Below, piece after piece: positions 3,008 to 17,390 of a stretch of DNA of 17,995 nucleotides. This stretch comes from Escherichia coli (lineage in GTDB: Bacteria; Pseudomonadota; Gammaproteobacteria; Enterobacterales; Enterobacteriaceae): NCBI RefSeq assembly GCF_003334335.1, contig NZ_QOWQ01000057.1. One strand, written 5' to 3'. Position 1 is the first letter of the stretch. Every line of letters begins with the position of its first letter. The notes beneath the pieces were generated by a model, which saw only the letters and a list, made by a program, of their open reading frames with translations, ran no database searches and was not told the DNA's origin. Position numbers and translations under genes: made by a program.

Positions 3008-3220
3008 CAGCTTTTCCTTACAGAGGGTGAATAAAAAAGCCGGTACCCACAAATGTGGATACCGGCAGGTACAAAACAGCATGCTCAGATAAAGTGGTTT
3101 TTCCCGGACATAAATGCTTCCCCTCTCTCATCCGCCAGAGAAGTATCAGTCCGTTGTGTGCAATTCCGTTCTGCATGATGAAGAGATTCAGCTGCCTTTT
3201 CGCAGACCATTAACCACTAT

Positions 3221-3294: not shown

Positions 3295-3379
3295 GAGAAA
3301 CAGGAGGGGCATGAGGTGTTTGTATCATGTTTTCAGTTGGTTAACGCAATGTAATCAGACATTTCCCCTGGCAGACTGT

Positions 3380-4252
3380 TCAGAAGAAAATCCAGTTCCA
3401 TACCGCGCGGGCAACAGAGACCACCGTGTCACGGACGGCACGCAGAACTGTGCGTGCAACAGAGGCAACACAGACGCTCTCCACCGTGTCAAATATCCGG
3501 TCCACCGCACCGGTAAACTGTTCACGGGCCTGCCCCCGGACAGATTCCGTGCACAGCTCGTCCTGCAGGCGGGTCATCAGGGGACTGGCGGCATGGTCGG
3601 GAAGCGCTGTCATGAGCGCACTGACCAGCGTATCCAGTTCCCAGCCGGTGCGGGCCGATACGGCAACAACCGGATGTACGGGCCGGAACAGCCGGAATAC
3701 CGCATCTGTTTTTTCGCGAATGTTCTGTTCCTGTGCGGGAGAAGGCTGAATACCTGCCATATCCCATTCATGGCAGGGCTCTGTTTTGTCGGCCTGCGTC
3801 ACCACAAACAGCACCTGCTGATGTCCCCGGTGCAGTATGTGTCGCCAGAAATACTCATCCACAGACAGGGCACGGTCATCGGCTTTAATCAGCCACAGTA
3901 CCAAGTCCAGTTCAGGCAGAATGTCACGGTACAGGGCTTCATACTCTGCATCCCTGTCCCGGCTCTCGCCCACCCCGGGCAGGTCAGTGATAACCATGCT
4001 GTGACCGTGGCCACTCAGACGGAAGCGCCGCACTTCCCGGGTGCCGGCGTGAACATCACTGACCGGGGTGACCTCCCCCTGAAACAGTGCATTACAGAGT
4101 GAGGATTTACCGGCCCCGCTTTTACCCATAATGCCAATCACGGGTTCGTGACTGGTGAGTTTGCGCAGATGTTCCAGGATGTGACGGGAAAGTGAGTAAG
4201 GCAGGGAGGAGAGCGGTTTTTCAATTGCCTCAATGGCATCAGACGGATTCAT
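3380..4252 (-). CDS. yeeP: YeeP/YkfA/YfjP-family P-loop GTPase (50S ribosome-binding GTPase fold), 290 aa, apparently intact
   Basis: The track ORF 3380..4291 begins at a GTG. I trimmed it to the ATG at 4250-4252 (MNPSDAIEAIEKPL...). It has Walker A GKSGAGKSSLCNALF, a G3-like DLPGVGE and a G4-like TQADK. It lies directly upstream of flu, as yeeP does in CP4-44. Confidence 0.9.
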   Translation of the reverse strand: MNPSDAIEAIEKPLSSLPYSLSRHILEHLRKLTSHEPVIGIMGKSGAGKSSLCNALFQGEVTPVSDVHAGTREVRRFRLSGHGHSMVITDLPGVGESRDRDAEYEALYRDILPELDLVLWLIKADDRALSVDEYFWRHILHRGHQQVLFVVTQADKTEPCHEWDMAGIQPSPAQEQNIREKTDAVFRLFRPVHPVVAVSARTGWELDTLVSALMTALPDHAASPLMTRLQDELCTESVRGQAREQFTGAVDRIFDTVESVCVASVARTVLRAVRDTVVSVARAVWNWIFF

Positions 4253-4405
4253 ACATGTATTCCCGGTGAAAAAAGACAAAACCCCGCGCACCGGAAAAGT
4301 GGCGGGGGACTCACGGAGATAATATCTGCCTAAAATTATTTGGAATGCAGGTATATGCAGCTAATTTGTATCGGCTCATTAGTACAGAACTAAACCTCAT
4401 CTGAC

Positions 4406-4431
4406 AGTCCGCTCTGTGCCAAGAGCGGACT
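4406..4431. terminator. Stem-loop downstream of the GIY-YIG gene (possible terminator)
   Basis: Perfect 10-bp inverted repeat agtccgctct (4406-4415) / agagcggact (4422-4431) with the 6-nt loop gtgcca, 37 nt beyond the stop of the 4468..5412 gene. TTTG follows on the plus strand only, and the minus-strand side has no U-run. Confidence 0.35.
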
Positions 4432-4467
4432 TTGCAAAATGGGGGTTATTTCAATCAAAACGTAACG

Positions 4468-5412
4468 TCACAACCAGCCGACGCTCTCTCGCCATTTATA
4501 ATTAGTAACTTTATCATTTTCGCTTATTTTTTTAGATATAGAGCGCGGCTCTCTTCCTAGATACTCAGATATTTCTATCGGGGACAAATCAAAATCGACA
4601 AGCATGACTCTAAGTTTTTCCATTTCCTTTAAAGTCCAAGGCTTGCCATAATTTTCATAAAGAGATACCTTATGCTCCCTGATAGTTCGCTTTCTCTGAG
4701 TTTCACTTTCCCTCTGAAAAATCTCGCTTTTAAATTGTGAACGGAACTCTTTACAGAAGTTGTTATCAGTTTTTTTGTTATATAGATTGCTAAAAATAAG
4801 CTGGGATGCCGGGTCTAAATCAGGTGTGTTAATAATGAAAACTTTGACCTTTTCCATATAGGGATATTCAATTTTACCCAATATGCTTAATTGCTTTATA
4901 TTAAAAAAACCTCTCAAATCAAAAGATTTAATGAGCTTTGATTGGATTACACTTTCAATCCTGCTTGCATTTGAATAACAGTACTTTGCCATTGGAAGGG
5001 CCCATACTACCAGTTGAGGAATATATTTTTCTAATGCAATGCTCTGCCAATCAGTATCAAAGGTTTGGCTTTTTGCTAGCATGTTTTTCGGCAAATCAGA
5101 ATACATTGTGGTAGATGCCCATATCTTATAATCATTCGCCAAGGCTTGATAGTATTTTGTGTGGTTATGAATTTTATAAGCTGACATGAAGCGATAAACG
5201 TCTTCGTCGTGACCAGCGTCGTAAATTGTTCGATTTCCTCTAAGATAACCGTCGTAATGTTCGGTTATCCTTCTACCTACATTACAACTTACCCCAACGT
5301 AAACCACACGACTGAAAAGTCCTTTATGGACAATAAGATAAACTCCGCTACAGCCAGATTTCCTGGCCTCTGATAGAGAACCTAAAAATCTCCATTCCAT
5401 AATTAAATCCAT
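4468..5412 (-). CDS. Orphan AT-rich gene: divergent GIY-YIG nuclease-like N-terminal domain plus C-terminal Myb/SANT-like HTH tail, 314 aa
   Basis: This is the only long ORF in a visibly AT-rich block. GIY-YIG-like motifs are SGVYLIV (GIY), VVYVGVS (YIG), GRRITEH (conserved Arg/Glu region) and a later RIESVIQ (candidate catalytic Glu). The C-terminal segment GKPWTLKEMEKLRVMLVDFDLSPIEISEYLGREPRSISKKI resembles a Myb/SANT or HTH repeat. The domain calls are by eye only. Confidence 0.75.
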   Translation of the reverse strand: MDLIMEWRFLGSLSEARKSGCSGVYLIVHKGLFSRVVYVGVSCNVGRRITEHYDGYLRGNRTIYDAGHDEDVYRFMSAYKIHNHTKYYQALANDYKIWASTTMYSDLPKNMLAKSQTFDTDWQSIALEKYIPQLVVWALPMAKYCYSNASRIESVIQSKLIKSFDLRGFFNIKQLSILGKIEYPYMEKVKVFIINTPDLDPASQLIFSNLYNKKTDNNFCKEFRSQFKSEIFQRESETQRKRTIREHKVSLYENYGKPWTLKEMEKLRVMLVDFDLSPIEISEYLGREPRSISKKISENDKVTNYKWRESVGWL

Positions 5413-6129: not shown

Positions 6130-6360
6130 AGTGACATTATAAGGAAACGAACAATAGATCGAGTAAATCGCAGTCAGGGACAAGGATTGTAGTCATAGAG
6201 AAGTCTCCTGTAACGGTTTTCAGGAAGCTAATCCCGACGCCTGATTTTGCAGGCGCGGAAGGAGAAGATACTGCGGCCATTAATCCGCCACAAGGCATTT
6301 ACGTGCATAAATCGCGCAGTCAAATCCGACTCCCACTGTAGTTCTTGAACCTGATACCAC

Positions 6361-6378
6361 ATTTAGCTAATTTAGCTA
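6361..6378. repeat. Tandem direct repeat ATTTAGCTA x2 (each with palindromic core TAGCTA), candidate operator
   Basis: The sequence atttagcta atttagcta occupies 6361-6378. It is followed by TATTAT (6386-6391, a -10-like hexamer) and the ATG of the small ORF at 6405. Confidence 0.6.
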
Positions 6379-6404
6379 ACTTATCTATTATACCAGTGGT
6401 TGCC

Positions 6405-6650
6405 ATGAATATGAATGAAGACGAGATTTATCGCCATATCCGGCAGGCACTTTCCAGTGCGCCTCGTAACCAGTACACCGTCGAGCTGCACCTGCAAATG
6501 ATTAAATATGCCGACAAACTGGAACACATTACGGCAAAAGCCTTTTGCGAAGGCACTGGTCTGAACCAGAGCCTCGGTACCGAATTCAGCAAAATGCGTA
6601 ACTTAACCCATCGGTTAAAGGCCGCCGGTCTGAATACCGATCTGCTGTAA
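6405..6650 (+). CDS. Small (81 aa) HTH-like protein at the head of the hsd operon; candidate regulator
   Basis: The track ORF starts at a TTG (6345). The first ATG is at 6405 (MNMNEDEIYRHIRQAL...). The segment ITAKAFCEGTGLNQSLGTEFSKMRNL looks like a helix-turn-helix. The gene is co-directional with hsdM and ends 39 nt before it. Confidence 0.55.
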   Translation: MNMNEDEIYRHIRQALSSAPRNQYTVELHLQMIKYADKLEHITAKAFCEGTGLNQSLGTEFSKMRNLTHRLKAAGLNTDLL

Positions 6651-6689: not shown

Positions 6690-9128
6690 ATGGCTATCAA
6701 AAAAACCGAACTCTATTCTTCCCTGTGGGCAAGCTGCGACGAACTGCGTGGCGGGATGGACGCCAGCCAGTACAAAGACTATGTACTGACCCTGCTGTTT
6801 ATGAAGTACGTTTCCGATAAGTATAAAGGCGATCCTTACGGGATGATCGTGATACCCAAAGGAGCCAGCTTTGACGATATGGTTGCGCTGAAAAATGACA
6901 AAGAGATCGGCGACAAAATCAACAAAATCATCCACAAGCTGGCGGAAGAGAACGGCCTGAAGGGCGTCATCGACGAAGCCGACTTTAACGACGAAGATAA
7001 GCTCGGCAAAGGCAAGGAAATGATTGACCGCCTGAGCAAGCTTGTCGGTATCTTTGAAGGGTTAAATCTCTCCAGCAACCGGGCCGAAGGCGACGATCTG
7101 CTGGGCGATGCCTATGAATATCTGATGCGTCACTTCGCAACCGAATCCGGTAAGAGTAAAGGGCAGTTTTACACTCCAGCGGAGGTGTCACGTATTCTGG
7201 CGAAGGTGATTGGTATTACTCCCGATACTCCGCAAGATGCAACGGTTTATGACCCAACCTGTGGCTCTGGTTCGCTGCTGTTGAAAGTGAATGATGAAGC
7301 CCGGCGCGGACTGTCGATTTTCGGCCAGGAGATGGATAACGCTACCAGTGCGCTGGCGCGGATGAACATGATTCTGCATAACAATGCCACCGCGAAAATC
7401 TGGCAGGGCAATACGCTGAGCGATCCGCAGTGGAAAGAGGCGAACGGCAAACTGAAAGCCTTCGATTTTGCCGTGGCGAACCCGCCTTTTTCCAATAAAA
7501 ACTGGACCAACGGGCTGACGCCGAAAAAAGATCCGTTTGAACGCTTCGGCTGGGGTATTCCGCCGGAAAAAAACGGCGATTATGCTTTTTTGTTGCATAT
7601 CATTAAAAGCCTGAAAAGTACCGGCAAAGGCGCGGTGATCCTGCCCCACGGCGTACTGTTTCGCGGTAACGCCGAAGCGAATATCCGTGAAAATCTAATC
7701 AAGCAGGGCTATATCAAAGGCGTTATTGGTTTGCCAGCCAACCTGTTTTACGGCACCGGCATCCCGGCGTGCATCATTGTGATTGATAAAGAGCACGCCC
7801 ACAGCCGCAAAGGCATTTTTATGATCGACGCCAGCCGGGGCTTTATCAAAGATGGCAACAAGAACCGCCTGCGTAGCCGAGATATTCACCGCATTGTGGA
7901 CGTGTTCAACCATCAGCGAACGGTACCTGGCTACAGCCGGATGGTGCCCTCCAGCGAGATCGCCGGAAATGATTACAACCTGAATATTCCTCGCTATATC
8001 GAGAGCGGCGAGCCGGAAGATTTACACGATCTGACCGCGCACTTACAGGGCGGTATTCCGGCACGCGATGTGGATGCTTTGCAAGATTACTGGCGGGTAT
8101 TCCCTGCCCTGCGCAACGTGCTGTTTGCTGACGACCGTCCCGGTTACTGTCGGGCGCAGGTGAACGCGCAACAGGTGAAACCGACCATTCTGGCGCATCA
8201 GGAGTTTAAGGATTTTGCCACCCGCAGCCTGCTACCGTTTAAAGCGTGGGTGAAAGAGGCAAGTCTGGAAGAGATTCGCAAAGGTGATAAACCCAAAGCG
8301 CTAATCCACGATATCAGCGAAATGCTATTGGCGCAGTACGCCAACAGTGAGTTGCTGAACAAATACAGCGTGTACCAGATCCTGATGGATTACTGGACTG
8401 ATGTCATGCAAGACGATGTGTATGCGATTATGCAGGATGGCTGGCAAGCCGCCGCGCAAATCCGCGAGCTTCAGCCGGTGAAAGGCAAAGATGGCAAAAA
8501 CATCTGGAAAGAAACGCACGATTTCGAGTTTACCAAACGGCGCTACAAGGCCGATGTGCTGCCCCGTTCGCTGGTGGAAATTCGCTGTTTCCCGGAACTG
8601 CTGGATGCGCTGAACCGCGCGCAGGAGCGCAGTGAAGAAGCCAGTCGTCAGCTAGTGGAATTCATCGAGGAGCAGGCAGGTGAAGAGGATCTGCTGGCCG
8701 AGGCGAAGAACGATAAAGATAAGGTGACGCAAAAGCTGGTGAATGCCCGTCTAGCACAGTTAAAGAAAACCACTGCCGGCCCAGATGAGCTGGCAGTGCT
8801 GAACCGCTGCCTGGCGCTAATTAAGGCCGAAGCCAGTGCGAAAAAAGCGCTGAAAGCCGCACAAGAAGCGCTGGATCGGGCGGTGTTTAAACATTATCCC
8901 ACGCTGGATGAAGCAGCGATTAAAACGCTGGTAGTGCAGGATAAGTGGCTGGCAACGTTGCAGGCAGGGATCAAGGCGGAGATTGAGCGTATTACCCAGC
9001 AACTGGCGTCGCGCGTAAAGGAGCTGGAAGAGCGTTATGCTGAACCGTTGCTAGCGCTTGAAGCCTCCGTTGAGGCGTTGAGCGAGAAAGTGGCCGAGCA
9101 TTTGCGGGCGATGGGGCTGGAGTGGTGA
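6690..9128 (+). CDS. hsdM: Type I restriction-modification methyltransferase subunit HsdM, unusually long (812 aa)
   Basis: The N-terminus is HsdM_N-like (ELYSSLWASCDELRGGMDASQYKDYVLTLLFMKYVSD). The AdoMet motif is VYDPTCGSGSLLL (about residues 186-198) and the catalytic motif is ANPPF (about residues 263-267). The core ends near NLNIPRYIE (about residue 438). Roughly 365 further residues are rich in predicted coiled coil. Confidence 0.97.
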   Translation: MAIKKTELYSSLWASCDELRGGMDASQYKDYVLTLLFMKYVSDKYKGDPYGMIVIPKGASFDDMVALKNDKEIGDKINKIIHKLAEENGLKGVIDEADFNDEDKLGKGKEMIDRLSKLVGIFEGLNLSSNRAEGDDLLGDAYEYLMRHFATESGKSKGQFYTPAEVSRILAKVIGITPDTPQDATVYDPTCGSGSLLLKVNDEARRGLSIFGQEMDNATSALARMNMILHNNATAKIWQGNTLSDPQWKEANGKLKAFDFAVANPPFSNKNWTNGLTPKKDPFERFGWGIPPEKNGDYAFLLHIIKSLKSTGKGAVILPHGVLFRGNAEANIRENLIKQGYIKGVIGLPANLFYGTGIPACIIVIDKEHAHSRKGIFMIDASRGFIKDGNKNRLRSRDIHRIVDVFNHQRTVPGYSRMVPSSEIAGNDYNLNIPRYIESGEPEDLHDLTAHLQGGIPARDVDALQDYWRVFPALRNVLFADDRPGYCRAQVNAQQVKPTILAHQEFKDFATRSLLPFKAWVKEASLEEIRKGDKPKALIHDISEMLLAQYANSELLNKYSVYQILMDYWTDVMQDDVYAIMQDGWQAAAQIRELQPVKGKDGKNIWKETHDFEFTKRRYKADVLPRSLVEIRCFPELLDALNRAQERSEEASRQLVEFIEEQAGEEDLLAEAKNDKDKVTQKLVNARLAQLKKTTAGPDELAVLNRCLALIKAEASAKKALKAAQEALDRAVFKHYPTLDEAAIKTLVVQDKWLATLQAGIKAEIERITQQLASRVKELEERYAEPLLALEASVEALSEKVAEHLRAMGLEW

Positions 9129-10462
9129 TGGTGGATTTAATGGTGAATGAGCAACGGTCGAGTACGGCGGGGAAAGATGTGCCTGCGGGGTATAAACTGA
9201 CTGAGGTGGGCGTGATTCCTGAGGATTGGGATTGCGTACCATTTGGTAATCTGTTTAAAACAAACACAAAGAAAAAAAAAGTCAGCGATTATGAGCTAGT
9301 TTCATTTATTGGGATGCAGGATGTTAGTGAAGATGCACAATTAAAAAATAATACTCAACTTCCTTTTAAAGAAGTTAAAAGTGGTTTTACTTACTTTGAA
9401 AAAGGGGATGTTTTATTAGCTAAAATAACCCCTTGTTTTGAAAATGGAAAAGGATGTCATACCGCTGATTTACCTACTAATGTAGGTTTTGGGAGTACGG
9501 AATTTCATGTATTAAGGGAAAATGAAGACTCCGATTCTCGCTTCATCTATTTTTGGACAACTGATAAAAAATTCAGAGCATCACTGGAATCTGAAATGGT
9601 GGGAAGTGCGGGACACCGTCGTGTGCCGCTAGTTGCTATAGAAAAATATTTGATTCCATGTCCCCCAAATTTGCAAGAGCAAAGTGCTATTGCTGATTCA
9701 TTATCTGATATTAATAATTTTATTCTAGCTCTAGAAAAGCTTATCGTTAAAAAACAAGCCATTAAAACCGCTACTATGCAGCGACTACTGACTGGTAAAA
9801 CCCGTTTGCCACAGTTTGCGTTGCGCAAAGATGGCTCTGCTAAGGGATATAAAAAGAGCGAGTTGGGGGAGATTCCTGAAGATTGGAATTGTATTAATCT
9901 TGGTGAGCTAGGTAATTGCATTATTGGGTTAACTTACAAACCTGAAGATACATCTGATTATGGTACATTGGTATTACGCTCATCCAACATTCAAAATAAT
10001 CACTTAGCTTATGATGATAACGTCTTCGTCAGCATAGAACCACCTGAACGCACAATTGTGAAAGAAGGTGATATCTTGGTATGTGTAAGAAATGGCAGTC
10101 GCCAACTTATTGGCAAATGCGCATTAATTGACAAAAATGCGCAGGGCTCAGCATTCGGTGCATTTATGTCAGTATTCCGAACTGATATATATGGATTTAC
10201 ATTTCACCAATTCCAGTCTGATATTATTCAAAAGCAAATCGCTGAAGTTATGGGTGCCACTATCAATCAGATAACTAACAAAGATATGTTGGGCTTTAAA
10301 ATCCCATTACCTGAAAATACAGAAGAACAAGCCGCCATCGCCGCCATCCTCTCCGATATGGACAAGGAAATCCAGATCCTGCAACAGCGTCTGGACAAAA
10401 CCCGCCAGCTTAAGCAAGGGATGATGCAGGAACTGTTAACCGGGAAAATCCGCTTAATATAG
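9128..10462 (+). CDS. hsdS: Type I R-M specificity subunit HsdS with two target-recognition domains
   Basis: The ATG at 9128 overlaps the hsdM TGA as TGATG. The track ORF starts at the GTG at 9122. TRD entry motifs are duplicated (GVIPEDWDCVPFGNL and GEIPEDWNCINLGEL). Conserved helical spacers are also duplicated (QSAIADSLSDINNFILALEKLIVKKQAIKTATMQRLLTGKTRLP and QAAIAAILSDMDKEIQILQQRLDKTRQLKQGMMQELLTGKIRLI). Confidence 0.95.
   Translation: MVDLMVNEQRSSTAGKDVPAGYKLTEVGVIPEDWDCVPFGNLFKTNTKKKKVSDYELVSFIGMQDVSEDAQLKNNTQLPFKEVKSGFTYFEKGDVLLAKITPCFENGKGCHTADLPTNVGFGSTEFHVLRENEDSDSRFIYFWTTDKKFRASLESEMVGSAGHRRVPLVAIEKYLIPCPPNLQEQSAIADSLSDINNFILALEKLIVKKQAIKTATMQRLLTGKTRLPQFALRKDGSAKGYKKSELGEIPEDWNCINLGELGNCIIGLTYKPEDTSDYGTLVLRSSNIQNNHLAYDDNVFVSIEPPERTIVKEGDILVCVRNGSRQLIGKCALIDKNAQGSAFGAFMSVFRTDIYGFTFHQFQSDIIQKQIAEVMGATINQITNKDMLGFKIPLPENTEEQAAIAAILSDMDKEIQILQQRLDKTRQLKQGMMQELLTGKIRLI
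9272..9280 (+). repeat. A9 homopolymer inside hsdS TRD1 (encodes part of TKKKKV)
   Basis: The read gaaaaaaaaag gives nine consecutive A residues at 9272-9280, inside the hsdS coding frame. Confidence 0.9.
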
Positions 10463-10474
10463 AAGGGAAAGCAC

Positions 10475-11131
10475 ATGGCTTATGATTACAGCGCCAGCCT
10501 CAACCCGCAAAAAGCTCTGATCTGGCGTATCGTCCATCGGGACAATATCCCGTGGATTCTGGATAACGGGCTGCACTGCGGCAACAGTCTGGTGCAGGCG
10601 GAAAACTGGATCAATATCGGCAACCCGGAGCTGATCGGCAAGCGTGCCGGGCATCCGGTACCTGTCGGAACGGGCGGGACACTGCATGACTATGTGCCGT
10701 TTTATTTTACCCCCTTCTCGCCAATGCTGATGAACATCCACAGCGGGCGCGGCGGCATTAAGCAACGCCCCAATGAGGAGATCGTTATTCTGGTCAGCAA
10801 CTTGCGAAACGTGGCAGCACACGACGTACCCTTCGTGTTTACCGACAGCCATGCTTACTATAACTGGACCAACTACTACACCAGTCTGGATAGTCTGGAC
10901 CAGATCGACTGGCCCATTTTGCAGGCACGGGACTTTCGCCGCGATCCAGACGATCCGGCTAAATTTGAACGCTATCAGGCAGAGGCGCTAATCTGGCAAC
11001 ACTGCCCGATCTCTCTGCTGGATGGGATAATTTGTTACAGCGAAGAGGTCAGGTTACAATTAGAACAATGGCTGTTTCAGCGTAATCTAACAATGTCCGT
11101 TCACACACGGGCTGGATGGTACTTCTCATGA
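10475..11131 (+). CDS. darT: DarT (DUF4433) ssDNA thymidine ADP-ribosyltransferase toxin, 218 aa
   Basis: Motifs typical of DUF4433/DarT are [17 protein letters not shown] near the N-terminus, [13 protein letters not shown], and the putative catalytic Glu in RYQAEALIW. The gene is followed by a macrodomain gene with an ATGA overlap. An AAGGGA Shine-Dalgarno sequence lies upstream, and the start is 12 nt after the hsdS stop. Confidence 0.9.
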
Positions 11132-12195
11132 TCACATATACACAAGGCAATTTACTGGACGCACCGGTGGAAGCTCTGGTGAATACGGTTAATACCGTCG
11201 GTGTCATGGGGAAAGGCATCGCGTTGATGTTTAAAGAGCGCTTCCCCGAAAATATGAAAGTCTATGCCCTCGCCTGCAAACAAAAGCAGGTGATCACCGG
11301 CAAAATGTTCATTACCGAAACCGGGGAACTGATGGGACCGCGCTGGATTGTTAATTTTCCGACCAAACAGCACTGGCGCGCTGATTCCCGCATGGAGTGG
11401 ATTGAAGATGGCTTGCAGGACTTACGCCGCTTTTTGATTGAAGAGAACGTGCAGTCCATCGCCATTCCACCACTGGGCGCAGGCAACGGTGGTTTGAACT
11501 GGCCGGACGTTCGGGCGCAGATTGAATCTGCCCTTGGCGACCTTCAGGACGTTGATATCCTGATTTACCAACCGACTGAAAAATACCAGAACGTTGCCAA
11601 AAGCACTGGCGTAAAAAAGCTCACTCCCGCCAGAGCCGCCATCGCTGAACTGGTGCGTCGCTACTGGGTATTGGGGATGGAGTGCAGCCTACTGGAAATC
11701 CAGAAACTGGCCTGGCTGTTACAACGCGCCATTGAGCAGCATCAACAGGACGATATCCTCAAACTGCGGTTTGAAGCTCACTATTATGGCCCCTATGCGC
11801 CCAATCTGAACCATCTGCTTAATGCGCTGGACGGCACCTATCTTAAAGCCGAGAAACGCATCCCGGACAGCCAACCGCTGGATGTGATCTGGTTTAACGA
11901 TCAGAAAAAAGAACACGTTAATGCGTATCTGAACAACGAAGCCAGAGAGTGGCTACCTGCGCTGGAGCAGGTCAGCCAGTTAATTGACGGCTTTGAATCG
12001 CCGTTTGGTCTGGAGTTGCTGGCAACCGTAGACTGGTTGCTGAGCCGTGGCGAATGTCAACCAACGCTGGATTCCGTTAAGGAAGGGCTGCACCAGTGGC
12101 CTGCGGGCGAACGCTGGGCCAGCCGTAAGTTGAGGCTGTTTGATAATAATAATCTGCAATTTGCCATTAACCGCGTAATGGAGTTCCATTGCTGA
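11128..12195 (+). CDS. darG: DarG antitoxin: N-terminal macrodomain (ADP-ribosyl-DNA glycohydrolase) plus C-terminal DarT-binding-type domain, 355 aa
   Basis: The start [40 protein letters not shown] is a canonical macrodomain beginning. NFPTKQHWR and [13 protein letters not shown] are also macrodomain-like. The ATG at 11128 overlaps the darT TGA (ATGA). The track ORF starts 12 nt earlier, at 11116. Confidence 0.92.
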
Positions 12196-12213
12196 GGGTT
12201 TAAGGAGCGCCTT

Positions 12214-15200
12214 TTGAGTACCGTGGGCCAGCGCGAACGCGCCACACAGCAGCGTCTGATTCAGTTTTTTGTTGAAGATTTAGGTTACCGCCATCTGAGT
12301 CACCGCACCGGGTACACCGGGAACAGCAACATCGACACTAATATACTGAGCGCGTGGCTAAAACGGCGCGGCGTTAATGATACGTTGATCACCCGGGCGT
12401 TGCGGCAACTGGATTCCGCCGCCGCTCTGGGCGAAGGCAAAAAACTCTATTACGCCAATAAAGAGGTCTATCGCCTGCTGCGTTACGGCGTGAAAGACAA
12501 AGAAGGCGCAGGCGAGCAGAACCAAACCGTGTGGCTGATTGACTGGGCCAACCCACAAGCCAATGATTTCGCCATCGCCGATGAGGTGACGGTCAAAGGC
12601 GAGTACTGCAAGCGCCCGGATCTGGTGCTGTACGTTAACGGCATTGCGCTGGGCGTGATTGAACTTAAGCGTTCGTCAGTGCACGTCAGCGAAGGCATCC
12701 GGCAGAATCTCGATAATCAAAAGAAAACCTTTATCCGCGATTTCTTCACCACTATGCAGTTAGTGATGGCGGGCAACGATACGCAGGGCCTGCGCTACGG
12801 CACCATCGAAACCCCGGAAAAATACTATCTGGAGTGGAAAGAAGATAATCCAGGCGACTATACACATAAACTCGACTTTCATTTAAGTCGTCTGTGTAGC
12901 AAATCCAGGCTGTTGGATATCGTCCATAATTACATTGCCTTTGATGTCGGGGTGAAAAAACTCTGCCGCCATAATCAGTTCTTCGGCGTCGAGGCGGCTA
13001 AACAACATATTGCCCGTCGTGAAGGCGGTATTATCTGGCACACACAGGGATCGGGTAAAAGCCTGACGATGGTCTGGCTGGCGAAGTGGATCCGTGAAAA
13101 TGTGCCAAACTCCCGCGTGTTGATTGTGACTGACCGCACCGAACTGGATGAACAGATCGAAAGCGTGTTTATGGGCGTGAATGAAGATATTTATCGCACC
13201 TCCAGCGGCAACGATCTTATCGCAACGCTCAATCATCCTAACCCGTGGCTCATTTGCTCGCTGGTGCATAAATTTGGTCGTCGCAGCGAAGCTGAAGACA
13301 ATGCGGCTACCGACGCCTTTATCACCGAATTACAGCAGTCCCTGACGAAAACATTCCGCGCCAAAGGCGATCTGTTTGTTTTTGTGGACGAGTGCCACCG
13401 CACACAATCCGGCAAGTTGCATAACGCCATGACTGCCATTCTGCCGGACGCCCTGTTTATCGGTTTTACCGGCACACCGCTGATGAAGAAAGATAAGAAG
13501 AAGTCGGTTGAGGTGTTCGGCCCTTATATCCATACCTATAAATTTGATGAAGCGGTGGCCGACGGTGTGGTGCTGGATCTGCGCTACGAGGCACGCGATA
13601 TTGACCAGTATCTGACATCAGAGAAAAAGGTCGATGACTGGTTTGAAGCCAAGACTCGCGGTTTGTCGAATTTAGCCAGGACCCAGCTTAAGCAAAAGTG
13701 GGGATCAATGCAGAAGCTGCTCTCCAGCAAGTCGCGGCTGGAGCAGATCGTTAACGACATTTTGCTGGATATGGATACCCGTCCACGCCTGATGGACGGG
13801 CGCGGCAACGCCATGCTGGTATGCAGCAGTATCTATCAAGCCTGCAAGGTTTACGAGATGTTCAGCCAGACCGAGCTGGCAGGAAAAGTAGCGATTGTGA
13901 CCAGCTATCGCCCCGATGCCGCCAGCATCAAAGGCGAAGAAACGGGCGAAGGGTTAACGGAGAAACTCTCTAAACACGCCACCTATCGTAAAATGTTGGC
14001 TGACTATTTTGAACAAAGTGAAGAGAAGGCCGCCGCACGCATTACCGAGTTCGAGCGGGAAGTGAAACAGCGTTTTATTGAAGAGCCGGGGCAAATGCGC
14101 CTGCTTATCGTGGTGGATAAGCTGCTGACTGGCTTTGACGCGCCGTCCGCCACCTATCTCTACATTGATAAAACCATGACCGACCATACGCTGTTTCAGG
14201 CGATTTGTCGGGTGAACCGGCTGGACGGTGAGGATAAAGAGTATGGCTATATTATCGATTATAAAGATCTGTTCCGTTCGCTGGATAAAGCGATTACCGA
14301 TTACACCACGGGCGCGTTTGATGATTACGATCGGGACGATGTGGCCGGGTTGCTGAAAGACAGGCTGGAGCAGGCGCAACTGGATCTCGACAGCGCGCTG
14401 GAGATGGTTCGCAGCTTATGTGAACCCGTCAAAACCCCGCGCAGCCTGCTGGACTATCAGCACTATTTTTGCGGTGAATCAGGAGAGAATCAGACTTCGT
14501 TAAACGAAAAAGAGGCGCTGCGCCTGACATTTTACCAGTGCGTCGCCCGTCTGCTACGCGCTTATGCCAGCATCGCCAATGAAATGCCGGAAGCAGGCTA
14601 CACTGCCGAAGAGGTAGAGAGCATTCGCGCCGAAGTCGCTGAATTCGAAAAACTGCGCTATGAGATTAAGCTGACCAGCGGCGATCTTCTGGATATGAAG
14701 CGCTTTGAACCCGCTATGCGTCATTTACTGGATATGTATGTTCGCGCCGATGGTAGCGAAGTGCTGATGGATTTTGAAGAGTTAAGTCTGATTGAACTGA
14801 TTGTCGAGAAAGGCTTGGCGGCGACCGTCGCCCTGCCGGATGATATCCGTAATAATCAGGATGCGATGGCGGAAACCATCGAAAACAACGTGCGCAAAAC
14901 CATCGTGGATGAAAACCCGGTTAACCCAAAATACTATGGACGCATGTCGCAGCTGCTGGATGAACTGATTACCCTTCGCCGACAAAATGCGCTCAATTAT
15001 CAGCAGTATCTGGAACGTATCCGCGATTTGTGTAAACAGGTCATCCGCCCGGAGCAAACCGCCGGAGCGTGCTACCCTGCCACCATGGATACACAAGCAA
15101 AGCGCGCCTTCTATGATAACTTCGGCCACGACGAGGTACTGGCGACCCGCATAGATACGACGATTCGCTATACCAAAAGGGCAGAGTGGATTGGCGATCG

Positions 15201-15309
15201 TTTTAAAGAACGGGAAATTGCCAACGCATTACGTGAAGAGACCGCCAGCTATAATATTGATATTGATGAGGTGATAGCGCTTGCCCGTCAGCAGAAGGAA
15301 TATCACTGA
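12214..15309 (+). CDS. hsdR: Type I R-M restriction/translocase subunit HsdR, 1031 aa, TTG start
   Basis: The N-terminal PD-(D/E)xK nuclease motif is RPDLVLYVNGIALGVIELKRS. SF2 helicase motif I is HTQGSGKSLTM and motif II is FVFVDECHRTQ. The following FIGFTGTPL and LTGFDAP/QAICRVNR motifs are present. The TTG at 12214 lies 6 nt after the strong Shine-Dalgarno sequence AAGGAG (12202-12207). Confidence 0.96.
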   Translation: MSTVGQRERATQQRLIQFFVEDLGYRHLSHRTGYTGNSNIDTNILSAWLKRRGVNDTLITRALRQLDSAAALGEGKKLYYANKEVYRLLRYGVKDKEGAGEQNQTVWLIDWANPQANDFAIADEVTVKGEYCKRPDLVLYVNGIALGVIELKRSSVHVSEGIRQNLDNQKKTFIRDFFTTMQLVMAGNDTQGLRYGTIETPEKYYLEWKEDNPGDYTHKLDFHLSRLCSKSRLLDIVHNYIAFDVGVKKLCRHNQFFGVEAAKQHIARREGGIIWHTQGSGKSLTMVWLAKWIRENVPNSRVLIVTDRTELDEQIESVFMGVNEDIYRTSSGNDLIATLNHPNPWLICSLVHKFGRRSEAEDNAATDAFITELQQSLTKTFRAKGDLFVFVDECHRTQSGKLHNAMTAILPDALFIGFTGTPLMKKDKKKSVEVFGPYIHTYKFDEAVADGVVLDLRYEARDIDQYLTSEKKVDDWFEAKTRGLSNLARTQLKQKWGSMQKLLSSKSRLEQIVNDILLDMDTRPRLMDGRGNAMLVCSSIYQACKVYEMFSQTELAGKVAIVTSYRPDAASIKGEETGEGLTEKLSKHATYRKMLADYFEQSEEKAAARITEFEREVKQRFIEEPGQMRLLIVVDKLLTGFDAPSATYLYIDKTMTDHTLFQAICRVNRLDGEDKEYGYIIDYKDLFRSLDKAITDYTTGAFDDYDRDDVAGLLKDRLEQAQLDLDSALEMVRSLCEPVKTPRSLLDYQHYFCGESGENQTSLNEKEALRLTFYQCVARLLRAYASIANEMPEAGYTAEEVESIRAEVAEFEKLRYEIKLTSGDLLDMKRFEPAMRHLLDMYVRADGSEVLMDFEELSLIELIVEKGLAATVALPDDIRNNQDAMAETIENNVRKTIVDENPVNPKYYGRMSQLLDELITLRRQNALNYQQYLERIRDLCKQVIRPEQTAGACYPATMDTQAKRAFYDNFGHDEVLATRIDTTIRYTKRAEWIGDRFKEREIANALREETASYNIDIDEVIALARQQKEYH

Positions 15310-16025
15310 TGCCAATCATGCAAATAGGCTCGTTACACTTGCTGGTCAACCGTAAGGCGATTAAGAATCTGCATATCAGCGTGCTGCCGCCTGATGGCAA
15401 AGTCCGCGTTTCAGCGCCGGAACATATGACGGAGACGGCGATTCGTATGGCGGTTGCTTCACGCTTTCGCTGGATCAGAAAACAGCAGCAGGATTTCGCC
15501 AGACAGCCTCGTCAATCAGAGAGGGAAATGGTCAGCGGAGAGTGCCACTATCTTTGGGGCCGAAGATATCGCCTACTTGTGATTGAGCGTCACGGGCGTC
15601 ACGAAGTAAAAGTTGCAGGAAATAATAAGCTCCAGCTTTATGTTCAACCGGGAACCCGTGATGAAAATAAGGCATTGGCGTTAAGTGAATTTTATCGACA
15701 TGAACTAAAACAGCAGGTGGCTAAGCTTCTACCTGAATGGCAGGACCGAATCGGTGTTCCCCTAACATTCTGGGGCATCAAAAAGATGAAAACCTTTTGG
15801 GGCACCTGTAACACTACAACAAAACGAATCTGGCTCAATCTGGAGCTAATTAAGAAGCCGCCGGAGTGTCTGGAGTATATTCTGGTGCATGAACTGGTTC
15901 ATCTTCTGGAACGTCACCATAATGCTCGCTTCCGGTTGCATATGGATCGGTTTATTCCTGACTGGCGTGAGCGTCGGGATTTGTTAAATAATATGCCGTT
16001 AGCGTTTGAGGCATGGGAGTATTGA
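15309..16025 (+). CDS. DUF45/YgjP-like (M48/WLM-like) HExxH zinc metallopeptidase, 238 aa, coupled to hsdR
   Basis: The zinc-binding motif is HELVHLLERHH near the C-terminus, preceded by WGTCNTTTKRIWLNLELIK, which is typical of DUF45. The ATG at 15309 shares one nucleotide with the hsdR TGA (TGATG). AAGGA lies 9 nt upstream. Confidence 0.9.
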   Translation: MPIMQIGSLHLLVNRKAIKNLHISVLPPDGKVRVSAPEHMTETAIRMAVASRFRWIRKQQQDFARQPRQSEREMVSGECHYLWGRRYRLLVIERHGRHEVKVAGNNKLQLYVQPGTRDENKALALSEFYRHELKQQVAKLLPEWQDRIGVPLTFWGIKKMKTFWGTCNTTTKRIWLNLELIKKPPECLEYILVHELVHLLERHHNARFRLHMDRFIPDWRERRDLLNNMPLAFEAWEY

Positions 16026-16120
16026 TTGAGCCTGTAACTGTTTTTTGTCCATAAATTAACCTTCATTTGATGCTGGATTGAACATATCAAAATCAGACAA
16101 TTACACAAATCTATGTACAG

Positions 16121-16342
16121 GCTCTTCAATTTGTTTTTGATCGCTGATGTGACTGACAACAAACGCTCACGGAACACTAAATCCCGCTCTTCAGACGTTA
16201 ACTCGCCTCGCTCAATAAGCTCTCTGATAGAATCTCGTGGCGTTGGCGTGACTACTTCAAAACAAAAAGTCTCACCATTTTTCTCGGCGACAAAGTCTGG
16301 TCCAGCATCCTTGCTTTTAATGTCGCTAAAGCCCATCTCCAT
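16121..16342 (-). pseudogene. 5'-truncated fragment of a PD-(D/E)xK-like (restriction-endonuclease-fold) gene
   Basis: Only the first ~74 codons of track ORF 15914..16342 look protein-like (GPDFVAEKNGETFCFEVVTPTPRDSIRELIERGELTSEERDLVFRERLLSV, with a D...ExK-like PDFVAEK). The apparent ATG (16340-16342) straddles the junction with the IS3-family end, so the true N-terminus is missing. The rest of the ORF is low-complexity read-through that overlaps the peptidase gene. Confidence 0.4.
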
Positions 16343-16523
16343 AAGGTAGCCTGAGTTTAACGGACACTCCTTCGTAAGGAGCTAAGGCTACGCTGTAAGC
16401 AGAAACGCAAGTTCAGAGCGACTACGAACTCGAACCACAATCTGCCAGTTGCGCCAAATCTGCTGAACCAGACGTTCGCTCCTACAGCACCAAATCAGGT
16501 CTGGGTGGCGGACCTGACGTATG
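16342..16523 (+). mobile_element. Internally deleted IS3-family remnant (IS600-like as far as I can recall): left end fused to a mid-orfB fragment
   Basis: 16342-16372 (taaggtagcctgagtttaacggacactcc...) resembles an IS3-family terminal inverted repeat. 16382-16522 translates in frame as LRLRCKQKRKFRATTNSNHNLPVAPNLLNQTFAPTAPNQVWVADLTY. That is the conserved region just before and including the first catalytic Asp of IS3-family OrfB transposases. The orfA gene and the start of orfB are absent, and the fragment stops abruptly at the IS66 end. Confidence 0.8.
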
Positions 16524-16608
16524 GTAAGCGTAAAGCCAATGCCGTCTGTAACACCTGCTCCTTGCAGACTAAATTAGAGCTCCTTCTAAATTAGACGGAG
16601 TTCTATTG

Positions 16609-17043
16609 ATGGATAAACCTACAGACTGGCGCTCCGGAACCCGCCGGATATTTTCTAATGAATTTAAACTTCATATGGTTGAACTGGCTTCGAAACCAAA
16701 TGCCAATGTTGCACAACTGGCCCGGGAACATGGCGTTGATAACAACCTGATTTTTAAATGGCTACGCCTCTGGCAAAGAGAAGGACGTATTTCTCGCAGA
16801 ATGCCTCCAACTATTGTAGGCCCTACAGTATCACAATCTTTTCCGGCCTCTCCGACTCTGGTTCCAGTGGAACTTATCGACACCCCGCGCTGTGCTACAG
16901 ATGCTCCTGCTCCGGAGGCATTATCAGTTGCTTGTGCAGCTTCCTGCCATGTGGAATTCCATTACGGTAAAATGATGCTGGAAAATCCTTCACCAGAGCT
17001 GCTCACGGTGTTGATCCGTGAGCTGACCGGGAGGGGACGATGA
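16609..17043 (+). CDS. tnpA: IS66-family accessory protein TnpA (HTH, transposase_8-like)
   Basis: MDKPTDWRSGTRRIFSNEFKLHMVELASKPNANVAQLAREHGVDNNLIFKWLRLWQREG is the IS66 orf1 type. The ATG at 16609 lies 8 nt after GGAG. The track ORF starts at the TTG at 16606. Confidence 0.9.
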   Translation: MDKPTDWRSGTRRIFSNEFKLHMVELASKPNANVAQLAREHGVDNNLIFKWLRLWQREGRISRRMPPTIVGPTVSQSFPASPTLVPVELIDTPRCATDAPAPEALSVACAASCHVEFHYGKMMLENPSPELLTVLIRELTGRGR

Positions 17044-17390
17044 TTTCACTCCCATCAGGTACCCGTATCTGGCTCGTTGCCGGCGTTACTGATATGCGTA
17101 AATCCTTCAACGGTCTGGGGGAGCAAATACAGCATGTGCTGGATGATAACCCCTTCTCCGGTCACCTGTTTATCTTCCGTGGCCGACGGGGAGACACGAT
17201 TAAAATCCTGTGGGCTGATGCTGATGGTCTGTGCCTGTTCACCAAACGCCTTGAGGAAGGTCAGTTTATCTGGCCTGCGGTGCGTGACGGTAAGATATCC
17301 ATTACCCGCTCGCAACTGGCAATGCTCCTCGATAAGCTGGACTGGCGTCAGCCAAAAACATCCCGCCTTAACGCACTGACAATGTTGTAA
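17040..17390 (+). CDS. tnpB: IS66-family TnpB (IS66 Orf2)
   Basis: MISLPSGTRIWLVAGVTDMRKSFNGLGEQIQHVLDDNPFSGHLFIFRGRRGDTIKILWADADGLCLFTKRLEEGQFIWP is a near-textbook IS66 Orf2. It overlaps tnpA by ATGA. Confidence 0.95.
   Translation: MISLPSGTRIWLVAGVTDMRKSFNGLGEQIQHVLDDNPFSGHLFIFRGRRGDTIKILWADADGLCLFTKRLEEGQFIWPAVRDGKISITRSQLAMLLDKLDWRQPKTSRLNALTML

Follow-up and report, generated by a model that had tools for sequence, protein, structure and literature searches.

Why does the gene for a small zinc peptidase directly follow the restriction subunit gene of a restriction-modification system of type I, and on what does its product act? The question is raised by a stretch of 17,995 nucleotides from Escherichia coli (assembly GCF_003334335.1, contig NZ_QOWQ01000057.1; the whole stretch is hereafter called the window), in which a peptidase gene overlaps the end of hsdR. 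We found that in one large clade of type I restriction-modification systems this peptidase gene is conserved as an accessory and amounts to a fourth gene of the system. The identity of the gene and its linkage to hsdR are practically certain. Both were already known, as the protein has been named in print and is annotated in hundreds of genomes; added here are a corrected family label, counts that establish hsdR, and not the toxin-antitoxin pair DarTG or the repressor RptR, as the constant partner, and a concrete hypothesis on function. The elements at the junction of the two genes are:

12214–15309, plus strand: hsdR, 1031 aa, TTG start (Pfam HSDR_N, SWI2_SNF2 and T1R_D3-like; NCBIfam TIGR00348)
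15295–15299, plus strand: Shine-Dalgarno-like sequence AAGGA, 9 nt before the peptidase ATG and within the last hsdR codons
15307–15311, plus strand: stop/start overlap TGATG, hsdR TGA at 15307–15309 and peptidase ATG at 15309–15311, 1 nt in common
15309–16025, plus strand: YgjP-like/DUF45 zinc peptidase gene, 238 aa (RefSeq WP_001122107.1, product 'M48 family metallopeptidase')

The original prediction, made from the letters of the window, had described a peptidase ATG that shares a nucleotide with the hsdR stop and is preceded by its own AAGGA; both are read in the window at the places listed, and the 1-nt overlap joins the two genes in a manner that fits the translational coupling it proposed. 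From the architecture of the genes, hsdR and the peptidase gene are very probably translated together. No sigma-70-like promoter was found in the hsdR-peptidase interval, and the overlap and the promoter-free junction indicate that the peptidase gene is transcribed with hsdR, so that hsdM, hsdS, hsdR and the peptidase gene form one predicted transcription unit. The stop and start codons overlap by exactly 1 nt in 39 of 78 species and by 4–56 nt (mostly 14) in 10 more, with short spacing in most others. Most orthologous junctions have AAGGA, AAAGA or AGGGA at the Shine-Dalgarno place. Because AAGGA lies within conserved HsdR codons (..QKEYH and stop), where it encodes a conserved Lys-Glu, its conservation is not attributable to ribosome binding alone. 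The reading frame, the overlap and the motif are far beyond chance, given the dN/dS values and the number of homologues reported below, the recurring overlap and the promoter-free junction.

How constant the partnership is was assessed on two sets of loci, one of 80 loci on contigs from one genome per species (peptidase identity 54–89%) and one of 80 metagenome loci seeded with distant representatives (7-sequence alignment; 37–58% identity to the window protein). In both sets we mapped relatives of each of the seven island proteins and scored linkage when the HsdR C-terminus lay at most 250 nt upstream on the same strand. hsdR was directly upstream of the peptidase gene in 78 of 79 evaluable species loci and 61 of 70 evaluable metagenome loci (139 of 149 together). 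The statement in the original prediction that DUF45 peptidases recur beside type I hsdR was thereby borne out across genomes and metagenomes, and also on plasmids. The nine metagenome exceptions comprise two loci with an insert of 0.5–0.8 kb separating hsdR from the peptidase gene, three in which the peptidase gene follows hsdM or hsdS, two in which it follows an Xre-type helix-turn-helix (HTH) gene, one beside an integrase gene, and one with only 1 kb of upstream sequence, where no type I gene was seen. In the two HTH-associated loci (L138:5611–6687 and L159:3793–5951), the homologue lies directly after a 107-aa Xre-type HTH gene and away from hsdR; the neighbours include an N6_N4 DNA methyltransferase, in L138 also a 923-aa protein with a TnsA-like endonuclease end, and in L159 a YhcG nuclease gene lies between. 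These two loci represent a different restriction-like context.

The arrangement hsdM-hsdS-(cargo)-hsdR-peptidase with overlapping or abutting stop and start codons is kept at 31–33% peptidase identity on Klebsiella, Acetobacter and Acinetobacter plasmids, and a Rhodococcus plasmid has the same arrangement with a 47% identical homologue. On one Klebsiella plasmid (L162, NZ_CP138764.1, 837–7681) the operon is a compact hsdM-hsdS-hsdR-peptidase unit with a 31% identical peptidase. The Klebsiella plasmid HsdM has an ordinary length of 507 aa and lacks the C-terminal extension of the window HsdM, and its HsdR aligns with that of the window over the nuclease and motor domains only (33% identity), not over the C-terminal domain. 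A complete hsdM-hsdS-hsdR-peptidase module is also present in a 64-kb Caudoviricetes genome from human faeces (L167, phage PV036457.1, 1–6735), with an HsdR 47% and a peptidase 41% identical to those of the window and an 8-nt stop/start overlap. EcoR124I-like HsdRs, which are common on E. coli plasmids, are mostly without the peptidase, and related HsdRs were found on 1,875 plasmids and the peptidase on 471. From the constant linkage to hsdR and the mostly peptidase-free EcoR124I-like HsdRs it follows that the peptidase is a fixed accessory of particular hsdR clades.

The peptidase is under strong purifying selection in a regime equal to that of HsdR. Against three enterobacterial orthologues, the ratio of nonsynonymous to synonymous substitution rates (dN/dS) is 0.055–0.069 for the peptidase, compared with 0.054–0.071 for HsdR, 0.055–0.076 for HsdM and 0.37–0.44 for the variable specificity subunit HsdS. 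The equality with HsdR suggests that the peptidase may have a conserved self substrate. A word-indexed search retrieved more than 7,700 homologues; the best 120 have 69–89% identity and derive from Salmonella, Photorhabdus, Vibrio, Methylomonas, Marinomonas and others (69–73% for the Vibrio, Methylomonas and Marinomonas homologues). In an exhaustive search of cluster representatives, 20,196 clusters passed E ≤ 1e-3 and 1,018 passed E ≤ 1e-30; with few exceptions they are stand-alone proteins of 225–250 aa. The hsdR-linked peptidase spans Proteobacteria, Cyanobacteria, Chloroflexi, Actinobacteria, conjugative plasmids and one phage. Of the 471 plasmids with a homologue, 388 are conjugative, 347 are from Klebsiella and 15 from Escherichia. 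Family members occur in four of 50,697 phage records, and the best match carries a whole restriction system.

These rates and distributions bear on one of the roles first suggested for the peptidase, the cleavage of phage anti-restriction proteins, by which the inhibitors of type I enzymes that phages or plasmids encode (Ocr, ArdA, Stp-like) would be destroyed and HsdR kept active. Made along with HsdR, the peptidase would be in place wherever an inhibitor acts, its strongly basic N-terminal domain could attract acidic DNA-mimic proteins, and the rarity of the family in phages would fit a host-side weapon. However, such targets are fast-evolving and mutually unrelated, whereas the peptidase is as constrained as HsdR (dN/dS 0.06; distant-genus homologues 69–73% identical) and no variable recognition region is seen in it. 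Purifying selection equal to that of HsdR fits this role poorly, and we regard it as decidedly unlikely.

What kind of enzyme the gene encodes was addressed by family searches and by an AlphaFold model built from 23 orthologues. Two parts of the protein are referred to below:

15309–15659, plus strand: basic N-terminal domain, residues 1–117, net charge +12, isoelectric point (pI) 11.1
15888–15920, plus strand: metal-binding and catalytic motif H194-E195-x-x-H198-x-x-E201-x-x-H204, invariant in 23 orthologues

The assignment to the DUF45/YgjP-like HExxH zinc peptidases is upheld by a match to Pfam PF01863 (YgjP-like, formerly DUF45) with an E-value of 1.4e-61 and 208.5 bits (cut-off 26) that takes in positions 5–206 of the 207-position profile. 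The SprT-like Pfam model gave a marginal match (28.2 bits), no model of NCBIfam or PADLOC matched, and a sequence search of the PDB returned marginal minigluzincin matches only. The motif HELVHLLERHH (residues 194–204) is intact, as had been claimed, with invariant catalytic residues, and homologues of 31% identity keep it as HELCHxxEHNH. The third zinc ligand of projannalysin and selecase aligns with H204. The model has a mean predicted local distance difference test score (pLDDT) of 78, with values above 90 across most of the C-terminal half. In structure comparisons it scored 12.5–13.6 with the minigluzincins proabylysin, selecase and projannalysin, 9.8 with SPRTN, 8.1 with Wss1, 7.1–7.4 with YbeY, 5.7 with ArdC, 5.3–6.3 with the genuine M48 peptidases ZMPSTE24, Ste24, BepA and HtpX, 5.2 with CapP and 5.0 with an IrrE orthologue; a viral fold library gave weak SprT-like matches only, none at E ≤ 0.001. 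The closest structural relatives of the modelled protein are thus predicted to be peptidases (minigluzincins, SprT). With a maximum Kyte-Doolittle 19-residue mean of 0.57 and a grand average of hydropathy of −0.55, the protein has no membrane segment. Taken together, these features describe a putative soluble zinc metallopeptidase in which a strongly basic N-terminal domain precedes a minimal catalytic module of the gluzincin type (SprT/Wss1/SPRTN-like). Membership of the true M48 family was rejected, as there is no Pfam Peptidase_M48 match and no membrane segment and the structure is closer to minigluzincins and SprT; the RefSeq label 'M48' is a loose and misleading name. Newer RefSeq records name homologues 'SprT family zinc-dependent metalloprotease'. 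In two rare fusions, P0178 (628 aa) and P0217 (854 aa), a YgjP-like domain is joined to an IrrE/M78 peptidase, in P0217 together with a Cro/C1-type HTH.

Lysine or arginine occupies 19 of the 89 invariant columns of the peptidase alignment, and the other island proteins have pI values of 5.6–7.9, all below that of the N-terminal domain. Such a composition would suit DNA binding; among solved structures, none aligns with the N-terminal half of the peptidase. At the other end, P230, L231, W236 and Y238 within the last residues (230–238; window 15996–16022) are conserved in the close clade and modelled with low confidence, and the conservation of this tail is lost in homologues of 31% identity. 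Cys167 and Cys187 are invariant, the latter seven residues ahead of HExxH. The tail and the two cysteines may be regulatory elements, such as a plug, a docking peptide or a cysteine switch.

Whether the enzyme is a protease in vivo at all is a further question that the fold bears on; it could instead be a hydrolase of small molecules or nucleic acids, or it could serve HsdR as a structural partner or in assembly. A zincin-like RNase is known in YbeY, and a nucleotide pyrophosphatase activity has been ascribed to E. coli YgjP. RefSeq names K-12 YgjP a 'putative metal-dependent hydrolase', and the protease site of ArdC is dispensable for its function (PMC7213743). Yet K-12 YgjP is only 29% identical over about 100 residues and has no N-terminal domain, the closest structural relatives are peptidases, and the HExxH...H set and the catalytic Glu are invariant across the sampled range, which argues against a purely structural role. 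We consider a non-proteolytic function improbable.

The surroundings of the two genes show what else could be a partner. The operon order is rptR, hsdM, hsdS, darT, darG, hsdR, peptidase, and the elements upstream of hsdR are:

6345–6388, plus strand: island promoter and RptR operators; −35 TTGAAC, TTAGCTAA twice and a degenerate third copy TTATCTAT downstream, TAGCTA at 6364 and 6373
6411–6650, plus strand: rptR, 79-aa small repressor, in the place of the RefSeq 'HTH-like domain-containing protein' of ECONIH1 and named in PMC12255303
6690–9128, plus strand: hsdM, 812 aa (Pfam HsdM_N and N6_Mtase, residues 10–441 only; PADLOC MTase_I)
9122–10462, plus strand: hsdS (Pfam Methylase_S twice; PADLOC Specificity_I), start probably ATG 9128, overlapping the hsdM stop, by comparison with RefSeq
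10475–11131, plus strand: darT, cargo toxin (Pfam DarT, E 3e-53; NCBIfam toxin_DarT)
11116–12195, plus strand: darG, cargo antitoxin with macrodomain (NCBIfam antitoxin_DarG, E 2.5e-135; Pfam Macro), RefSeq start at 11128 with a 4-nt darT overlap

This is the architecture of the seven-open-reading-frame 'RRDM' (RptR-RMS-DarTG-M48) island of enteropathogenic E. coli E2348/69 (Zhang et al., NAR 2025; PMC12255303), with which the window shares the identical peptidase accession, the identical seven-gene order and a promoter with matching TAGCTA operators. In hsdS and hsdR the window has alleles that match other E. coli (e.g., ECONIH1) and not necessarily E2348/69, whereas the peptidase gene shows no difference. 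In that study, the whole RRDM island on pBR322 gave protection against a phage panel, the island being tested only as a whole, and RptR was characterised together with its promoter and its operators, the 6-bp palindrome TAGCTA. Transcription of hsdM rose more than 15-fold on infection, for which the authors proposed proteolysis or sequestration of RptR by some factor. Their Figure 8A draws the association of the peptidase gene with these systems. The protein WP_001122107.1 was named 'M48', was assigned no function and was neither deleted nor mutated, in keeping with the remark in the original prediction that no assigned function was known; this is the only paper on the island. A literature search on DUF45, COG1451, YgjP, and restriction alleviation with metalloprotease found no functional study of the family beside restriction genes.

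Comparison with E. coli ECONIH1 showed that the coding sequence under the 100% identical hit is WP_001122107.1. The 1.4 kb around the peptidase gene are 100% identical in many complete E. coli genomes and are present with at least 80% coverage in 248 of 5,426 genomes. The nearest solved relative of the window HsdR is EcoR124I HsdR, which aligns over residues 101–696 only with 26–27% identity. Residues ~442–812 of HsdM (window 8013–9125) constitute a C-terminal extension of about 370 aa without a family match. On either side of the island (window 161–3082 on the minus strand, 3311–5412 and 16100–17390) lie other features: an AIDA-type autotransporter adhesin gene (ESPR, AIDA repeats, autochaperone and beta-domain), two open reading frames of 263 and 313 aa without a family match, an IS600 remnant and IS66 tnpA/tnpB. 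These flanks are consistent with horizontal acquisition.

The interval between hsdS and hsdR, occupied in the window (10463–12213) by darT and darG, was identified as a cargo slot in the species loci (L002–L081). It holds 0.4–6.3 kb in 52 of 58 measurable loci, with 37 protein families. The commonest cargo is Schlafen/AlbA_2 (with HATPase_c_4; 26 loci), GmrSD (20) and an 891-aa SMC-like ATPase (13), followed by DarG, Fic, DarT, zeta-toxin-like kinases, OLD nucleases, UvrD helicases and NucS/YhcG nucleases. The remaining six loci are free of cargo, and the peptidase is retained in all of them. DarT/DarG were seen in about 8 of 79 genome loci but not in any of the 80 metagenome loci, and DarTG systems have been reported to defend alone, outside their native elements (PMC10760071). 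The suggestion that the peptidase triggers DarT by degrading DarG is therefore disfavoured by DarTG occurrence, by the cargo-free loci and by this report, and a peptidase specific to DarTG was rejected on the same co-occurrence and literature. RptR is present in 7 of 20 loci in which the region upstream of hsdM could be assessed, with unrelated small HTH genes or none in the others, and on this count the peptidase was rejected as an RptR protease in general. It is hsdR that the peptidase should be grouped with, and neither DarTG nor RptR; cleavage of DarG or RptR cannot be its general function but could be a local side role.

This leaves the broader idea of a regulator-cleaving protease, by which a phage or DNA-damage signal would lead to cleavage of RptR (or DarG) and the operon would be derepressed or DarT freed. 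It would account for the rise in hsdM transcription and for the RptR proteolysis or sequestration proposed in PMC12255303, and the YgjP-like fusions to IrrE/M78 and HTH domains and the homologues directly after an Xre-type HTH gene in two metagenome loci keep such a role alive for some branches. Those two loci, L138 and L159, are the only ones in which an HTH gene is adjacent to the peptidase gene, and in the window rptR is six genes away. With RptR in only 7 of 20 assessable loci, DarTG in about one tenth of loci and defending without the island (PMC10760071), and a gene coupled to hsdR and not to the regulator, we consider this reading very unlikely.

The cargo slot also bears on a reading in which the peptidase is a latent abortive-infection effector guarded by HsdR, freed when a phage anti-restriction protein disables the enzyme and then cleaving an essential host or phage protein. 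Guarded effectors have a precedent in the logic of PrrC/EcoprrI, and Lit is a zinc-protease effector. Obligatory 1:1 coupling to HsdR would suit a stoichiometric pair of inhibitor and effector, the conserved and poorly ordered C-terminal tail of the close clade could be a plug or docking peptide, and the type I systems of the peptidase-bearing clade host other abortive or toxic cargo. In addition, the nearest structural relatives, the minigluzincins, crystallised as zymogens, and Wss1 is a latent protease (PMC4559962). However, the tail is not retained in the 31% identical homologues, and the gene is never in the variable cargo slot of PrrC-like effectors but is a fixed core gene under selection like that on HsdR. 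We judge a guarded effector to be unlikely, although it deserves more weight than the alternatives above.

Among the three roles named in the original prediction, proteolytic control of HsdR fits best, given the invariant partnership with HsdR, a fold of the SPRTN/Wss1 kind and a very basic N-terminal domain. We tentatively favour a DNA-associated protease that would control or clear HsdR and so provide self-encoded restriction alleviation, a possibility that we place short of an even chance and whose mechanism is proposed by analogy. A shade more tentative is its specific form, a dedicated DNA-activated protease that would degrade the HsdR of its own system once the motor engages unmodified self DNA or has stalled after cleavage. 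The peptidase would act on HsdR while HsdR is engaged on DNA and would clear away or inactivate those restriction complexes that translocate or have stalled on unmodified host DNA, or that remain after cleavage. The outcome would be a host-independent restriction alleviation or turnover supplied by the system itself. ClpXP degrades the HsdR of EcoKI and EcoA during translocation, EcoR124I takes another route, and whether other type I systems use proteolysis has been stated as unknown (PMC11109961). SPRTN and Wss1 proteases act on DNA-bound proteins and are switched on by DNA, and Wss1 is latent (PMC4559962). The systems concerned are often mobile, with hsdM, hsdS and hsdR (M-S-R) transcribed as a single operon, and control of this kind would matter most when such mobile operons enter unmethylated hosts. 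Of the 471 plasmids with a homologue, 388 are conjugative, so that these systems repeatedly face the problem of becoming established in naive hosts.

Several points weigh against HsdR as the substrate. Adjacency and co-inheritance are no proof of a physical or enzymatic relationship with HsdR, and the ligand of the basic domain could be acidic HsdR, RNA or another molecule. The published work on the island tested it only as a whole (PMC12255303). ArdC, a plasmid antirestriction protein with an HExxH metalloprotease domain that has been likened to SPRTN and IrrE, does not need its protease activity (PMC7213743), and a conserved active site is for this reason no guarantee of relevant proteolysis. 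EcoR124I-like enzymes and most E. coli plasmid HsdRs work without a peptidase gene; the peptidase is thus not needed for restriction as such. Finally, the distant family member YgjP of E. coli K-12 stands outside any restriction context.

How type I enzymes outside the EcoKI and EcoA families avoid self-killing has been stated as an open question (PMC11109961). The problem of self-restriction is most acute when a mobile M-S-R operon reaches an unmethylated cell, and the hsdR-linked peptidase is the obvious candidate for the self-protection of such type I systems. If the peptidase does degrade HsdR, a large type I clade would carry a built-in, host-independent device for alleviation and turnover, and this device would be a prokaryotic equivalent of SPRTN/Wss1 directed at a defined enzyme bound to DNA. 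If it is a guarded effector or destroys inhibitors instead, the most widespread class of restriction systems would gain a new layer.

Several known systems resemble the peptidase in part. With the PF01863/DUF45 family (COG1451), including K-12 YgjP, it has the full-length family match and the HExxHxxExxHN motif in common; YgjP differs in its 167 aa, the lack of a basic N-terminal domain, its 29% identity over about 100 residues and its housekeeping context, and nothing reported for it can be transferred with confidence. The minigluzincins proabylysin, projannalysin and selecase have a superimposable catalytic module of about 100 residues with His as third ligand, but are archaeal proteins of about 105–110 aa without the N-terminal domain and with no known link to restriction. 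With regard to stand-alone latency of the minigluzincin type, the peptidase has 238 aa and an extra domain and is in that sense not stand-alone, with a C-terminal tail that is conserved in the close clade and placed with low confidence. SPRTN and Wss1 have the HExxHxxxxxH zinc motif and the SprT-like fold in common with the peptidase, which, however, showed no SPRTN zinc-binding subdomain and no motif for binding ubiquitin/SUMO or Cdc48.

The M48 peptidases Ste24, HtpX and BepA have Glu as third ligand, whereas the peptidase has His and lacks both their Pfam domain and a membrane segment of the kind that holds Ste24 and HtpX in the membrane, BepA being periplasmic; its similarity to them is much weaker than that to minigluzincins and SprT. 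ImmA/ImmR, IrrE/DdrO and CapP/CapH are protease-repressor pairs and the model for regulator cleavage. From these ImmA/IrrE (M78) proteases with their HTH repressors (ImmR, DdrO, CapH) the peptidase differs in having no Peptidase_M78 domain and no constant adjacent HTH partner. To the ClpXP-dependent alleviation of EcoKI and EcoA it would be alike in the proposed logic only, the proteolysis of HsdR during translocation on unmodified self DNA (PMC11109961). ClpXP, an AAA+ serine protease of the host, has no linkage to the restriction genes, whereas the candidate described here is an operon-encoded zinc enzyme with HsdR as its putative substrate.

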